A stretch of 64,000 bases of DNA. Source: an uncultured Anaerolineales bacterium. GTDB lineage: Bacteria > Chloroflexota > Anaerolineae > Epilineales > JAANWY01. The notes beneath the pieces are model-generated. The model searched no databases and was not told the origin of the DNA. It saw only the letters and a list, made by a program, of their open reading frames with translations. The translations under genes were made by a program, and so were the position numbers. Positions 52,306-62,312 of the stretch are shown here, one piece after another; position 1 is the first letter of the stretch; each line of letters starts with the position of its first letter. Location: NCBI GenBank assembly GCA_964532665.1, contig CAZHMV010000001.1:103742-167741 (forward strand). Reading direction: 5' to 3'.

Positions 52306-52392
52306 CTTATCCGTGTTTCTTTCCATCCGTGAGAGATGTTGATCCCTTGTCGGTTCGAGACGCAGCTTCGCCGGGCAGTTACATTTGTCGCC
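52306..52392 (+). other. Conserved roughly 90-nt non-coding element (copy A) upstream of the response-regulator gene; paralogous to 62221-62312
   Basis: ttatccgtgtttctttccatccgtgagaga...cttgtcggttcgagac...gcagcttcgccgggcagtt is about 75% identical to copy B. Confidence 0.6.
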
Positions 52393-52462
52393 GTGGCAGG
52401 ATGGGGCTATATTTGACATCAGGAATGTTGCTGTTGTCGGTTGAAGAGGGAAAGAGGCTGCG

Positions 52463-53149
52463 ATGCCGAAAACAATTCTGGTGGTGGATGACGAAAAACA
52501 GTTACGCACATTGGTGAAGGCCTACCTGACGCAGGAGGGATTCCGAGTCGTGACCGCCGCTGATGGGCGGGAAGCTCTGTTTGTGGCGCGGCATGAGAAG
52601 CCAGACCTCATCATCCTCGACCTGATGATGCCAGAAATGGACGGGTATGAATTCATGCGCGTCTACAGCAAGGAACGGGAGACCCCCGTGATCATGCTGA
52701 CTGCCAAAGTTGAAGAAAACGACAGAGTTCTGGGGTTGGAACTGGGGGCAGATGACTACGTCACAAAGCCGTTCAGCATGCGCGAACTGGCGGCGCGAGT
52801 GCGGGCCGTGCTACGTCGCGCCGGCAGTCCCTTGCCCGATTCGGAAATCCTGCGTGCCGCTGACATTACACTTGACCGGGCCAATCACGTTGTCACCGTG
52901 AGCGACAGGCACGTCGATCTCACGCCCACCGAGTTTGACCTGCTGGCCATCCTGATGGCGGCGCCAGGGCGCGCCTTCTCTCGCTTTGACCTGCTCGACC
53001 GGTTGCAGGGCACCGCCTTTGACGGATACGAACGCACCATCGACGTCCACATCCGAAATCTGCGCTCCAAGCTTGAACCGGACCCACGCCATCCACGCTA
53101 CGTTGAGACGGTTTTTGGGGTCGGGTATCGGTTTACGGCTGGTGGTTAG
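52463..53149 (+). CDS. OmpR-family response regulator
   Basis: Receiver domain (DDEKQLR...DLMMPEMDG) plus a winged-helix trans_reg_C domain. Confidence 0.9.
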   Translation: MPKTILVVDDEKQLRTLVKAYLTQEGFRVVTAADGREALFVARHEKPDLIILDLMMPEMDGYEFMRVYSKERETPVIMLTAKVEENDRVLGLELGADDYVTKPFSMRELAARVRAVLRRAGSPLPDSEILRAADITLDRANHVVTVSDRHVDLTPTEFDLLAILMAAPGRAFSRFDLLDRLQGTAFDGYERTIDVHIRNLRSKLEPDPRHPRYVETVFGVGYRFTAGG

Positions 53150-53164
53150 AGGGGTTGTGGGGGC

Positions 53165-54625
53165 ATGATTCGCTCACTGGCTCTTAAGCTCACCCTGGCT
53201 TTTCTCGTGGTTGCGGTTATGGGCACCGTGCTGGTGGCCTTGTTCGTCGGGCAGCGAACGCAGGATGAGTTTGGCCGGTTCGTCCTCGACCGATACCGGG
53301 CGGATGTTGTCACCGAGTTGGCCGCGTACTACGAGAAGAATGGGAGTTGGGAGGGAGTAGATGCCATCGCGGTCCGTGATCTCGGTGGGCACCCTGGTCG
53401 GTGGGGGCCGGGTTGGGTACGGGTAACGCTCATTGATGCGCACAGCAAGGTTGTTTATGGCGAGTCACGTTACCGCGTGGGAGAGCAGGTGCCCCGGTCT
53501 GACAGCAATCACAGCCTGCCGATTCGGGTGAATGATGAAACGGTTGGTTGGTTGCTGTTCGATTCGTTTAGAGCCAGGGGGCGCCTGCTACCAGGTTCAC
53601 CTGAGTCAGCTTTCCTGGCAAGGGTGACGCGCGCCATCACCTTTGGCACCCTGGGAGCCATGGTGATTGCGTTGCTACTGGGTGTCTTGCTGGCGCGCAC
53701 CATCTCGCGTCCAGTTCGTGAATTGACGGCCGCCACACAACTCGTGGCGCAAGGGGAGCTGGGGCTTCAGGTACCTGTTCGCACCAAGGACGAGTTGGGT
53801 GAACTGGCTGCCTCGTTCAACCAGATGAGTGCAGACCTGGCGCATTCGAATCAGTTGCGCCGGCACATGACGGCCGACATCGCCCACGAACTGCGGACGC
53901 CCCTCAGCGTGATCCTGGGCTACACGGAAGCGTTGAGCGACGGCAAGCTGCAAGCCACACCGAAGACGTTTAGCATTTTGCACGACGGGGCGAAACACCT
54001 CAGTCGCCTGGTCGAGGATCTGCAGACGCTGGCGCTGGCAGATGCCGGCGAGTTGTCGCTAACTCGCCGGCCTGTTGATCCCAGAGTGTTGCTGGAACAC
54101 GCGGCGTCGGCTTACATGGGGCGCGCCGAGGAGAAGGGCATCTCGCTAAGCGTCGAGGCTGCACCGGATTTGCCGGAGGTCGAGGTTGACCCCGATCGGA
54201 TGGCGCAAGTGCTGGGCAATTTGCTGACCAATGCGCTGCGCCACACACCGGCCGGCGGGCGAGTCACTATGCAGTGTTCAGTCATCAGTCAACAGTTAGC
54301 AGTAAACAGTGATCAGTCATCAGTGATCAGTAACCAAACTGCTGCGGACGGCAAACTGATTACTGATAACTGTTTACTGATTACTGTCACGGACACCGGC
54401 ACCGGCATTGCCCCCGAGGACCTACCCCACGTTTTTGAACGCTTCTATCGCGGGGACAAGTCGCGCCAGAGGCAGGAAGGGGAGTCGGGACTGGGGCTGG
54501 CGATTGCCAAATCGATTGTGCAGATGCATGGTGGGAGCATTGCCGTTGACAGTACGCCTGGCGAAGGCACGACTTTCACCATCGTTTTGCCGGCCGAACC
54601 GGGTCCCCCTGACGGTGAGGTATAG
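53165..54625 (+). CDS. Sensor histidine kinase (2 TM, HAMP, HisKA, HATPase_c) carrying an in-frame repeat insertion in the ATPase domain
   Basis: H-box HELRTPLSVILGY, N-box LLTNALRHT, G1 DTGTGI and G2 GLGLAIAKSIV. Confidence 0.85.
   Translation: MIRSLALKLTLAFLVVAVMGTVLVALFVGQRTQDEFGRFVLDRYRADVVTELAAYYEKNGSWEGVDAIAVRDLGGHPGRWGPGWVRVTLIDAHSKVVYGESRYRVGEQVPRSDSNHSLPIRVNDETVGWLLFDSFRARGRLLPGSPESAFLARVTRAITFGTLGAMVIALLLGVLLARTISRPVRELTAATQLVAQGELGLQVPVRTKDELGELAASFNQMSADLAHSNQLRRHMTADIAHELRTPLSVILGYTEALSDGKLQATPKTFSILHDGAKHLSRLVEDLQTLALADAGELSLTRRPVDPRVLLEHAASAYMGRAEEKGISLSVEAAPDLPEVEVDPDRMAQVLGNLLTNALRHTPAGGRVTMQCSVISQQLAVNSDQSSVISNQTAADGKLITDNCLLITVTDTGTGIAPEDLPHVFERFYRGDKSRQRQEGESGLGLAIAKSIVQMHGGSIAVDSTPGEGTTFTIVLPAEPGPPDGEV
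54272..54390. repeat. Heptamer-periodic hairpin element (CAGTGAT family) inserted in-frame between the N-box and G1-box of the histidine kinase
   Basis: It encodes QCSVISQQLAVNSDQSSVISNQTAADGKLITDNCLL. Confidence 0.8.
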
Positions 54626-62000: not shown

Positions 62001-62168
62001 CTGGGTTTGGAGCAGGAAGTTCTGATCCCGTTCGCCGGGCAGCGGTGTCGCTTCGGCGCGGATGCCGTAGAGGTCTTGTGCCAGCCGAACGGCATCTTCA
62101 TCGGTGAAGTGCGGGGTGTGTGCAAGCATTTGCAGTTCCTGTTGCGTTATGGGCTCCTCAGACTTCAT
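58992..62168 (-). CDS. Three-domain fusion enzyme: APH-like small-molecule kinase + M23 (LytM) peptidase domain + class-III aminotransferase-fold PLP enzyme (phospho-lyase-like)
   Basis: Kinase HNDANDYNVIV and VVDFGD; M23 HLGLD and HLHFQ; aminotransferase III DEVQTGYGRIG and LGKPIGNGHP. The start is taken at MKSEEP (62168); the track's 62312 start translates a non-coding repeat. Confidence 0.75.
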   Translation of the reverse strand: MKSEEPITQQELQMLAHTPHFTDEDAVRLAQDLYGIRAEATPLPGERDQNFLLQTQAGEQFVLKIANALEDRAMLEAQQRAMMHIAQHAPLCPRVVPTRAGESLAQVQSPSGTHRFFVRLLTYLPGVHLADVKRHSPALLRDLGRCLGRMDRALADFDHPAVHRDFHWDLANGLRVCQEYQPLIADAELRRMVSQLTADFEHRVAPLLPKLRTSVIHNDANDYNVIVDPSGDLYTRHQRVAGVVDFGDMVYSYTVGDLAVTIAYAVLDKPDPLVAAAHVVSGYHVEYPLTEDEIAALFGLVCLRLCMSVCMAAHQQRQRPDDAYLTISQEPIRRTLPRLLQIHPRFAEAAFRHACDLEPVPASAAVARWLQANARTFAPVLDVDPRTEPCLVFDLSIGSPLVSGDGRKNADPYLTGRLLDRMAAAGVTLGVGRYDEPRLLYTAPEFAAGDAPTAERRVVHLGLDLFTPAGTPVYAPLAGVVHAFANRAAPQDHGPTIILRHDTDDGQTFYTLYGRLSEAGLEGVYAGQPVATGERLGSVGAPEENGGWPPHLHFQLITDLLDLNCDFPGVVRPGEREVWRSFSPDPNLILGIPAHRFPPRQPSKTQTLAARRRLLGRNLSLSYRDPLKIVRGWMQYLYDDEGRRYLDAYNNVPHVGHCHPRVVQAGQEQMAVLSTNTRYLHDFILRYAERLGALLPDPLRVCYFVNSGSEANELALRLARTHTGQRDLIVLEAAYHGNTTTLIDISPYKHSGPGGQGAPPWVHIAPLPDVYRGPYRRDDPQAGEKYAQPVAQIVEEMRRQGTGPAGFIAESLPSVGGQIVPPEGYLAAVYRYVREAGGVCIADEVQTGYGRIGTHFWGFEPQGVVPDIVVLGKPIGNGHPIGAVVTTPEIAASFDTGMEFFSTFGGNTVSCAIGLAVLDVVLEENLQAHALRVGDRLLAGLRPLVDRHPIIGDVRGSGLFLGVELVRDRETLEPAAEETAFIVNRMREEGILAGTEGPLHNVIKIRPPMPFSESDADFLVSTMARILTEDFEGDATPTTMSIARFMPQHSPGSVNSEQ

Positions 62169-62184
62169 CACAGAGAAAGTTTTC

Positions 62185-62247
62185 CCCACGGATGGAAAGA
62201 AACACGGATTTCTCTGTTTTTTATCCGTGTTTCTTTCCATCTGTGGG
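62185..62247. repeat. 24-bp-stem hairpin (CCCACGGATGGAAAGAAACACGGAT / ATCCGTGTTTCTTTCCATCTGTGGG) 17 nt upstream of the fusion-enzyme start codon
   Basis: Read directly. The right arm is the first part of conserved element copy B. Confidence 0.8.
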
Positions 62248-62312
62248 AGACTGGTGACTCCTGGTCGGTTTGAGGCAAAGCAAAGCTTCGCTGGACAGTT
62301 GCACAAATTCAA
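62221..62312 (+). other. Conserved roughly 90-nt non-coding element (copy B), paralogous to 52306-52392
   Basis: Alignable to copy A across the whole length. It lies in the divergent intergenic region between the fusion enzyme and the SH3 lipoprotein gene. Confidence 0.6.

Follow-up and report, generated by a model that had tools for sequence, protein, structure and literature searches.

The window, by which we mean the whole stretch of 64,000 nucleotides analyzed here, contains two similar non-coding stretches, one upstream of a response-regulator operon (locus A) and the other between the APH-M23-aminotransferase fusion-enzyme gene and the SH3-lipoprotein gene (locus B). Both are most probably copies of a new, lineage-specific family of interspersed intergenic palindromic repeats of the REPIN/BIME/MITE-like kind. 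The family is multi-copy, strictly intergenic and unconnected to gene function, and is variably present or absent at orthologous sites in relatives with ~90% nucleotide identity. It occupies a single clade of uncultivated Anaerolineae; Litorilinea and a Chloroflexia MAG contain weaker relatives. No account of it was found in the literature on Chloroflexi REPIN/RAYT systems, Caldilinea palindromic repeats and Anaerolineae MITEs.

The original prediction of a non-coding element of about 90 nt at two loci holds. A blastn search of the whole window with locus A recovered 62212-62303 (79.3% identity over 92 columns, E=7.6e-15; locus A side 52299-52383) and additionally matched the inverted arm at 62187-62209 in 23 of 23 positions, while a MAFFT alignment of 52280-52420 with 62195-62340 gave a mean column identity of 78%. 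The 21-mer TTATCCGTGTTTCTTTCCATC occurs exactly on the plus strand at 52307 and 62221, and a minus-strand occurrence at 62191-62211 differs from it in 2 positions; none of 100 shuffles gave a match. The homology extends over ~52290-52382 and 62169-62303 (Table 1), rather than the bounds first proposed, 52306-52392 and 62221-62312. The limits of locus A were set by comparison with L041, in which homology ends after CTCGAA (52289) and restarts at ATTTG (52383). A profile search matched locus A at 52299-52401 (E=3.6e-27) and found no further copy within the 64-kb window. Another repeat family present in the window ends in ..GGCTGAGTAGT.

Table 1. Positions of the two repeat copies, their parts and the adjoining gene signals in the window
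Feature	Position	Strand	Basis or description
Locus A, half-element	52290..52382	+	sequence, family alignments, profile match, orthologues without the element
Locus A decayed left-arm remnant GGAGGAGAC	52290-52298	+	
Locus A loop remnant CTCTGTTCTT	52299-52308	+	
Locus A intact right arm ATCCGTGTTTCTTTCCATCCGTG	52309-52331	+	
Locus A "Y" tail AGAGATGTTGATCCCTTGTCGGTTCGAGACGCAGCTTCGCCGGGCAGTTAC	52332-52382	+	
Promoter-like TTGTCG-17-TATATT, response-regulator operon	52385..52413	+	consensus scan
Fusion-enzyme true start (ATG 62129-62127, AGGA 62140-62137)	62127..62143	-	homologue N-termini
Locus B, full X-hairpin-Y element	62169..62303	+	sequence, family alignments, profile search, fold
Locus B "X" flank ACAGAGAAAGTTTTC	62169-62183	+	
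Locus B hairpin	62185-62247	.	25-bp near-perfect palindrome, one G·T, 13-nt loop
Locus B left arm core	62187-62209		
Locus B loop TTCTCTGTTTTTT	62210-62222		
Locus B right arm core	62223-62245		
Locus B "Y" tail, ending GGACAGTTGCAC	62246-62303		
Promoter-like TTGATC-17-TATCAT	62312..62340	-	consensus scan

The long hairpin that had been noticed at locus B is likewise real, with a stem one pair longer than the 24 bp first given. As DNA it folds with -27.5 kcal/mol (z=-10.7), and each of its arms contains two CACGGAT heptamers 16 nt apart. The locus A copy shows no significant fold (z=+0.96 versus shuffles). The "CNCPAKL...MERNTDK" open reading frames were rightly suspected of being spurious, as they are minus-strand translations of both copies; the middles of the two are mutually out of frame, on which ground a small peptide encoded by the element was rejected.

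The family was surveyed by exact matches to a 19-mer from the core, a sample biased towards intact arms, and ~8 kb around each match was examined. The genome scan returned 27 loci, of which ~22 are true copies, in seven Anaerolineae and Chloroflexia MAGs: S.6.sp3_bin.4 (19-mer on 11 contigs), K_2_bin.73 (5), SuakinDeep_MAG45_1 (3), D_2_bin.38 (2, the orthologues of loci A and B), Chloroflexia MFD09779 (2), T11 (1) and Litorilinea aerophila (1). The metagenome scan with the same 19-mer yielded 10 loci with one true copy (L034), and nothing was found in a scan of viral contigs or in a distant BLAST search of plasmids. The known copy number is modest: the best MAG has at least 11 loci, and the D_2_bin.38 representative only 2 with the exact core.

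Across these genomes the core consists of inverted 23-nt arms, CACGGATGGAAAGAAACACGGAT and ATCCGTGTTTCTTTCCATCCGTG, around a variable loop, and most copies are perfect hairpins with stems of 25-35 bp. The loop measures 7-36 nt, or 86-88 nt in two copies with a nested second element, and left-arm/right-arm doublets make up 19 of the ~24 elements. The arm sequence is constant across genera, the 23-bp core being nearly invariant over 17 copies, while the loops vary; the outer 5 pairs of the stem have changed on both sides and co-vary. Two lineage-specific accretions are optional, namely an "X" flank of 15-20 nt (AAACAGAGCAAGTTTTTCA) and a "Y" tail of ~55 nt (GAGACTGTTGATC..GTCGGTTTGAGG..AGCTTCGCTGGGCAGTTAC). 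The same arms bear different tails in different genomes, which argues that whole units were duplicated.

Neighboring genes were delineated from codon-usage log-odds, a procedure whose output agreed with the JGI calls. All copies lie between genes, in 5'/5', 3'/3' and tandem arrangements, and the neighbors are of unrelated function, including trmD|rplS, rnhB, topA|pepP, lexA, an antitoxin, a STAND ATPase and an AddB-like nuclease; one copy lies inside an ABC operon between the genes for the solute-binding protein (SBP) and the permease. This distribution of the core over ~22 loci in related MAGs speaks against the regulatory site common to two operons that had been envisaged, and further copies scattered without association to gene starts, which the original prediction had itself named as the mark of a plain dispersed repeat, are what was found. 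A leader belonging to a single operon was also rejected. As to orientation, canonical Y tails point to the 5' end of a co-oriented gene in seven of seven independent copies (binomial p ~0.008), variant-tail copies show mixed orientation relative to the flanking genes, and hairpin-only copies are found at 3' ends and in both orientations.

These patterns bear on a reading of the copies as operator sites of a regulon, in which a DNA-binding protein occupying the four CACGGAT heptamers (two direct, two inverted) would control the promoters next to the element, among them those of the response-regulator operon and of the SH3-lipoprotein and fusion-enzyme genes. Invariant arms around variable loops, a modest copy number and the uniform direction of the canonical tails would all suit such sites, as would the frequent position of copies just upstream of promoter-like boxes, with locus A abutting the -35 box and TGTATAAT or TACAAT boxes following the elements in the window, L006, L007 and L020. 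We nevertheless regard it as improbable, since copies also occur where a promoter is unexpected, such as at or within a few nucleotides of the trmD stop, 7 nt beyond the stop codon of rnhB, in the gap separating the SBP and permease genes of the ABC operon and between convergent genes, and the neighboring genes have no common function. Furthermore, the ~55-nt tail and the 15-20-nt X flank, which an operator does not need, were co-duplicated with the arms, and heptamers spaced 16 bp apart face opposite sides of the helix.

The comparison of orthologous sites at locus A weighs further against the operator reading. There the window and D_2_bin.38 (L024) both carry the element, but it is absent from the sister species S.6.sp3_bin.4 (L041) despite a response regulator 98% identical and a conserved promoter, with the same upstream stem-loop and -10 box. 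In both L041 and L042 (response regulator 94% identical) ~380 nt of other repeats take the place of the element, and the TATATTTGAC box is conserved in both; L044 (82%) has only a short empty spacer at this position. To judge from these orthologous sequences, the element is dispensable at locus A. The site downstream of trmD is filled by the hairpin in L006, L052, L053 and L056 and empty in L054, which is from the same sample as the window; L056 has decayed arms in which one pair has changed in compensatory fashion from T-A to C-G. Both D_2_bin.38 (L015) and S.6.sp3_bin.4 (L018) have the locus B element at the orthologous site, the latter with a partly deleted tail and a loop inverted relative to that of the window. 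Further small insertions in the intergenic region of locus B vary among the three relatives, and a different element in L015 shows a target-site duplication. A further fusion-enzyme orthologue, L047 (75% identical), lies in a different neighborhood with no hairpin and is uninformative on the empty site.

A second alternative is that the elements act in transcribed form, with the long hairpin serving as a 5' leader, an intercistronic or 3' stabilizer, an RNase III site or a small RNA. At locus B the whole element lies between the minus-strand promoter-like site, whose CAATGATACACAAGAAAAC block is conserved in L015 and L018, and the fusion-gene start. If this site is used, all of element B would be transcribed as its reverse complement within a ~175-nt 5' UTR of the fusion gene, and the predicted RNA fold of this leader is dominated by the hairpin (z=-5.2 versus shuffles). 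The copies after stop codons or between cistrons (trmD|rplS, SBP|permease) occupy classic positions of REP mRNA stabilizers, and co-variation of the outer stem is also consistent with such a role. The stems as a whole, however, are kept by sequence rather than by covariation, the consensus fold of the Y tail is weak (-4.5 kcal/mol) with no compensatory pairs, and variant-tail copies are of mixed orientation. Copy A, which folds no better than shuffled sequence, adjoins the -35 box on its upstream side and hence would fall outside the transcript. No match to Rfam was obtained in the whole window at gathering thresholds; permissive E-values at both loci brought up only generic miRNA-precursor hairpins far below these thresholds. 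A function of the copies as RNA is accordingly judged quite unlikely, and the Rfam result, the fold of copy A and the lack of compensatory pairs in the tail also tell against the small RNA or leader proposed in the original prediction. An intrinsic terminator was excluded, there being no T-run after the stem on either strand and no call from a terminator scan; an integron attC site was also rejected, as the stems are perfect and the copies solitary and set between housekeeping genes.

The suggestion that the hairpin, placed 17 nt from the fusion-enzyme start codon, occludes a Shine-Dalgarno sequence fails once the start is re-mapped. Homologues of the fusion enzyme begin MSLLxHTPRF, matching MLAHTPHF in the window at ATG 62129, with AGGA 7 nt upstream, and in D_2_bin.38 the upstream ATG is followed by a TAG in frame. 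NCBI gives the enzyme 1045 aa (P0121). This start leaves 54 nt between the start codon and the foot of the hairpin (62184), and 43 nt between the latter and the AGGA, too far for occlusion. The repeat gives rise to spurious open reading frames and N-terminal extensions, as in the calls of 1106 aa (from a TTG) and 1058 aa for this enzyme, and a TrmD C-terminus likewise runs on into the hairpin. The repeat might also be misread as a shared regulatory site.

Returning to the interspersed-repeat reading, the units would have spread, now or formerly, by copy-and-paste as non-autonomous elements, a process that would depend on a trans-acting enzyme recognizing the invariant arm, as in REPIN/RAYT or MITE/transposase pairs. 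The match between the arms would be maintained by inverted-repeat recombination or template switching, which would sometimes flip the loop. Effects on neighboring genes would then be a local by-product; such regulatory side effects are possible, given the direction of the canonical tails and the position of locus B in a predicted 5' UTR, where a very stable hairpin could be an RNase III or stability determinant. Several observations sit less easily with this reading. No transposase or other partner protein was found, none of 22 flanking proteins scanned against Pfam being a transposase, no direct repeat indicative of target-site duplication was seen around the hairpins or locus A, and the conserved sequence continues past the inverted arms, unlike in a classical MITE. 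At least 11 loci in the best MAG compare with hundreds for classical REPs, invariant arms with free loops would also fit a selected protein-binding site, and the uniform direction of the Y tails is not predicted for a purely selfish, randomly oriented repeat. This last feature would be accounted for if the Y-tail subfamily had been co-opted as a portable promoter-proximal module, with the invariant arm being the site of a dedicated protein, vertically inherited in this Anaerolineae clade, in a new, untagged type of REPIN-RAYT-like "domesticated replicator" in Chloroflexota; we consider this more speculative scenario unlikely. The family represents a previously undescribed hairpin repeat from a phylum that has received little study. 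Because close relatives differ clearly in which sites are filled and which are empty, it can be used to mark strains or species and offers a small model of palindromic-repeat persistence. Short of a dedicated partner protein or a genuine regulatory role, it neither opens a new mechanism nor answers a long-standing question.

Among known systems, the REP, REPIN and BIME elements of Proteobacteria share with this family their short, extragenic, multi-copy nature, inverted units forming a hairpin with a variable spacer, and arms that evolve in concert. The mosaic association with other conserved motifs recalls BIMEs, and the sites after stops and between cistrons, for example between solute-binding-protein and permease genes, and the way a lineage keeps the repeats over long times while orthologous sites gain and lose them, recall REPs and REPINs. 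REP/REPINs are mobilized by RAYT, an IS200/IS605-type Y1 (HUH) transposase whose single-copy gene is flanked by the repeats, whereas no RAYT gene was seen in the ~8 kb around the exact matches, and the host belongs to Chloroflexota rather than Proteobacteria. A REP unit is an imperfect palindrome of 20-40 nt, whereas the 23-nt arm is not self-complementary and contains two direct CACGGAT heptamers. [quoted passage not shown] REPs are extragenic and number more than 100 copies per genome (PMC2817692), in contrast to the tens, counted as exact-core matches, seen here (2 per 64 kb in the window).

MITEs such as Correia/NEMIS of Neisseria and ERIC/IRU and RU of enterobacteria are similar in being non-coding elements of 60-170 nt with long inverted repeats, insertion polymorphism between relatives and a location near promoters or in UTRs. 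Transcripts of Correia elements are cut by RNase III, and the present elements, if transcribed, would likewise form a long double-stranded RNA that could be so cut. They differ in that no target-site duplication was found and no parent insertion sequence is known, and in that the 23-35-bp arms are not clearly terminal, X flanks or Y tails lying outside them in many copies, with a spacer as short as 7 nt. Finally, the 13-nt loop of locus B, which is opposite in two orthologous copies, resembles the small "flip-flop" hairpin-loop inversions of plastid non-coding DNA, as is expected of a spacer between perfect inverted repeats; the plastid phenomenon is a mutational process rather than an element family, and here such inversion is a side property of the repeat.

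The resemblance between the intergenic stretches at locus A (upstream of the response-regulator operon) and locus B (between the genes for the fusion enzyme and the SH3 lipoprotein) very likely reflects their common membership in a new, lineage-specific family of interspersed palindromic repeats of uncultivated Anaerolineae. The similarity seen in the original prediction is borne out, with alignment of 52280-52420 against 62195-62340 giving 78% mean column identity, and blastn of the whole window with the locus A query recovering both 62212-62303 (79.3% over 92 columns, E=7.6e-15) and an inverted arm at 62187-62209 (23/23). 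An exact 21-mer is shared at 52307 and 62221 and recurs in inverted form at 62191-62211, which was matched in 0 of 100 shuffles. The ~90-nt similarity corresponds to the right arm and Y tail common to both loci, and a profile built from family members found no further copies in the 64-kb window. Both copies, translated from the minus strand, yield the "CNCPAKL...MERNTDK" peptides; as originally supposed, these are not coding, since the central parts of the two copies lie in different frames. The window itself has a G+C content of 61% and shows ~89-90% nucleotide identity to the Anaerolineae MAGs D_2_bin.38 and S.6.sp3_bin.4 (assembly GCA_046753605.1), and its response regulator is found on contigs of JGI metagenomes that include sample 3300038380. 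The fusion enzyme is widespread, with proteins of 65-75% identity in Acidobacteriota, Desulfobacterales and Anaerolineae metagenomes.

Repeat elements and neighbouring features, in window positions
Feature	Position	Strand	Remarks
186-aa hypothetical gene	ends 52231		upstream of A
G+C-rich stem-loop	52254-52284		between 186-aa gene end and A
Locus A element	52290-52382		right arm and Y tail; left arm shrunk to GGAGGAGAC
OmpR-type regulator	52463-53149		downstream of A
Histidine kinase, membrane-fusion protein, ABC/FtsX pair			after OmpR-type regulator, downstream of A
Fusion enzyme	58992-62129	minus	at B; APH (kinase-like), peptidase M23, class-III aminotransferase; ~1020 aa
AGGA	62140-62137	minus	7 nt upstream of ATG 62129
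Locus B element	62169-62303		complete X-hairpin-Y element
Locus B hairpin	62185-62247		25 bp, 13-nt loop; DNA fold -27.5 kcal/mol, z=-10.7
Promoter-like TTGATC-17-TATCAT	62340-62312	minus	kept in all three relatives
~160-nt palindromic element	62397-62557		GTCACTGACAGGACTTACGCGGTGAG ... CTTTACCGCGTAACTCCTGTCACTGA; directly past TGTATAAT box (62385-62392)
SH3 lipoprotein gene	start 62598		after B
TTCATCCTGAGCCTGTCGAAGGG tandem repeats	6224-6292		23-nt unit, three repeats
Repeats ending ...GGGAGGGTGGCTGAGTAGT	20379-20462, 34084-34167, 51454-51538, 11916-12000		~85-135 nt
Heptamer-arm hairpins	15668-15790, 33086-33180, 54265-54388, 58878-59013, 35904-35965, 39708-39755, 41167-41243, 25317-25397, 46649-46716, 4941-5011

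When 185,579 species-representative genomes were scanned once for the exact 19-mer ATCCGTGTTTCTTTCCATC, 27 loci were returned, ~22 of them true copies and every one of these in Chloroflexota MAGs, showing that the site is not confined to two operons. The 19-mer is present on 11 contigs of S.6.sp3_bin.4, at five loci in K_2_bin.73, three in SuakinDeep_MAG45_1, two in Chloroflexia MFD09779, one each in T11 and Litorilinea aerophila, and two in D_2_bin.38, the last being the orthologues of A and B. Loci in Bacteroidia, SAR116 and Acidobacteria were set aside as chance matches to the 19-mer alone. The family was found neither in the viral contigs and plasmids searched nor in any account in the literature searched. 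Its hairpin is formed by a left arm (CACGGATGGAAAGAAACACGGAT) and a right arm (ATCCGTGTTTCTTTCCATCCGTG) around a loop of 7-36 nt, which frequently ends CTCTGTTTTT and extends to 86-88 nt in two copies with a nested second hairpin; outside the arms lie an optional X flank (AAACAGAGCAAGTTTTTCA) and an optional Y tail ((T/A)GAGACTGTTGATCnCCTnGTCGGTTTGAGGCnnAGCTTCGCTGGGCAGTTAC). An in-register layout of the copies showed that the arms carry different tails in other genomes, namely TACGTATAAGT plus heptamer repeats in five loci (L009-L012 and L025) and AGTYCARTCCATCCTGGTTACCAC in the Chloroflexia MAG copies.

Under gene calls by a codon-usage log-odds caller, which reproduces the JGI calls, all copies lie between genes, in every possible arrangement: divergent 5'/5' (locus B and the loci L004 and L007), convergent 3'/3' (L017, L027) and tandem (~twelve loci). 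At L006 the first hairpin starts right at the trmD end, upstream of rplS, and a second lies 7 nt past the rnhB stop, while the L029 element separates the solute-binding-protein and permease genes of one ABC operon. Among 20 more flanking proteins scanned against Pfam there was neither a shared function nor a transposase, the neighbours including an antitoxin, a STAND ATPase, LeuD-like and helicase-domain proteins, PepP, TopA, a methyltransferase, an AddB-like nuclease, LexA, a lytic transglycosylase, an SdhA-like flavoprotein, an alcohol dehydrogenase and an ABC ATPase. This dispersal among unrelated neighbours, an outcome that the original prediction had itself set against its proposal, speaks against a shared regulatory site or operon leader. 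The canonical Y tails nevertheless face the 5' end of a co-oriented gene in 7/7 independent copies (A, B, L004, L007, L026, L029 and L023, whose neighbour is a putative 125-aa ORF; binomial p ~0.008); two of the five variant-tail copies are co-oriented and three opposed. The canonical-tail orientation could mean that the Y module acts close to promoters, and could equally result from small numbers or from replication-strand insertion bias, which occurs in elements transposing as ssDNA.

The occupancy of individual sites in relatives also bears on a regulatory role. At the locus A site, L041 of S.6.sp3_bin.4 encodes a 98% identical regulator and is devoid of the element; it keeps the upstream stem-loop ending CTCCCCCTCGAA and the box CTATATTTGAC, with ~380 nt of unrelated repeats between them in its place. 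The same ~380-nt situation is seen in L042 (regulator 94%), and L044 (82%) has only a short spacer. Its absence from all three shows that the element has not been conserved as part of the region controlling the regulator. Furthermore, the locus A element adjoins a predicted -35 box (TTGTCG at 52385), such that this copy would fall outside the transcript. The inserts of L041 and L042 are filled by ...CCTGAGC..GCCGAAGGG.. motifs, which are related to the tandem TTCATCCTGAGCCTGTCGAAGGG unit of the window; in L029 (~4330-4360) a closely similar unit breaks the element's left arm. The trmD site is filled in L006 (S.6.sp3_bin.4), L052 and L053 (TrmD 93% identical) and L056 (88%), and empty in L054 (86%), which comes from the window's own metagenome sample. 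The L056 arms bear 3 and 2 substitutions, including one compensatory T-A to C-G pair. In L006 (2159-2183) the TrmD frame reads into the hairpin and ends ...HTDGKKHG, and in the 93%-identical relative L052 (~2226) the trmD stop precedes the hairpin by 2 nt (241 aa); the repeat has thus altered a protein's C-terminus.

The 23-bp core is nearly unvaried across 17 hairpins, and several copies have changes on both sides of the stem in the five pairs beyond it (TTCA/TGAA, TATCT/AGATA, GTATA/TATAC). None of 500 shuffles reached the observed covariation score, although exact-match sampling is biased and kinship alone, in the absence of structure, can beat shuffles. Relative to the fusion gene, the 13-nt loop of B runs one way in the window (62210-62222, AAAAAACAGAGAA) and the opposite way in L018 (3562-3574, TTCTCTGTTTTCT), despite collinear arms and flanks; a flip of the spacer between perfect inverted repeats would produce such opposite orientations. 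The strict invariance of the arm sequence across genera, combined with free loops, also fits recognition by a specific protein, either a transposase or a DNA-binding factor.

The suggestion of a small RNA or leader fares poorly, as there was no Rfam match at gathering thresholds, permissive settings yielding only generic sub-threshold hits to miRNA-hairpin models, and there is no conserved fold, the locus A copy folding no better than shuffles (z=+0.96). The consensus of seven Y tails contains no compensatory pairs (fold -4.5 kcal/mol), and a T-run after the hairpin is absent on both strands. The long stem predicted at locus B is real, but it does not lie 17 nt from the start codon. Homologues of the fusion enzyme begin MSLLxHTPRF, NCBI annotates the identical protein at 1045 aa and D_2_bin.38 has an in-frame TAG after the upstream ATG, all of which place the start at ATG 62129-62127. 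The hairpin foot (62184) is 54 nt from this codon and the RBS is not "GGGG"; the proposed occlusion of the Shine-Dalgarno sequence does not hold. Mechanical ORF lists over-extend this frame to TTG 62312 (1106 aa), and the JGI call over-extends it to ATG 62168 (1058 aa). If used, the minus-strand promoter-like site would place the whole of element B in a ~175-nt 5' UTR; this predicted leader folds far better than shuffles (z=-5.2), and an effect of the element on processing or stability of the fusion-gene mRNA is possible.

Several other small repeats were observed in the window. The ~160-nt palindromic element probably belongs to the 5' UTR of the SH3-lipoprotein gene, and L018 (S.6.sp3_bin.4) has only a short unrelated stretch instead, a clean filled/empty contrast indicating a second small insertion. 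Two window copies of the GGGAGGGTGGCTGAGTAGT-ending family are 98% complementary, and D_2_bin.38 (L015, ~3885-4040) carries a further copy, with inverted termini ACTACCCAGG...GGCTGGGTAGT, as an insertion between the genes at locus B; being bordered by duplicated CTTCGACGRWA, this copy resembles a MITE and its target-site duplication. Long hairpins with tandem-heptamer arms ((CAGTGAT/CAGTAAC)n, (ACGTCTT)n and others) are numerous, lie near gene ends among those checked, and resemble the cyanobacterial STRR heptamer repeats; the same arrays follow the variant-tail copies L009-L012 and L025.

On the whole, the repeat is real but ordinary in kind, and is not a regulatory element common to two operons. 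The family is chiefly useful for annotation and for marking strains or species; with low probability, a dedicated partner protein or a co-opted module acting near promoters underlies it. Its closest analogues are the REP/REPIN/BIME elements and bacterial MITEs such as the Correia elements. In contrast to REP proper, the arm is not itself palindromic, the GTAG or CGTC tag characteristic of REPs (PMC3733652) is missing, and the known copy number is in the tens; lacking a palindromic arm and the tag, the family falls outside the REPs. The correspondence to MITEs is incomplete, in that no target-site duplication was found for the family and conserved sequence extends outside its inverted arms. With all these elements it shares extragenic multi-copy placement, inverted doublets forming a hairpin, mosaic flanks, sites after stop codons or between cistrons, and gain and loss among relatives.
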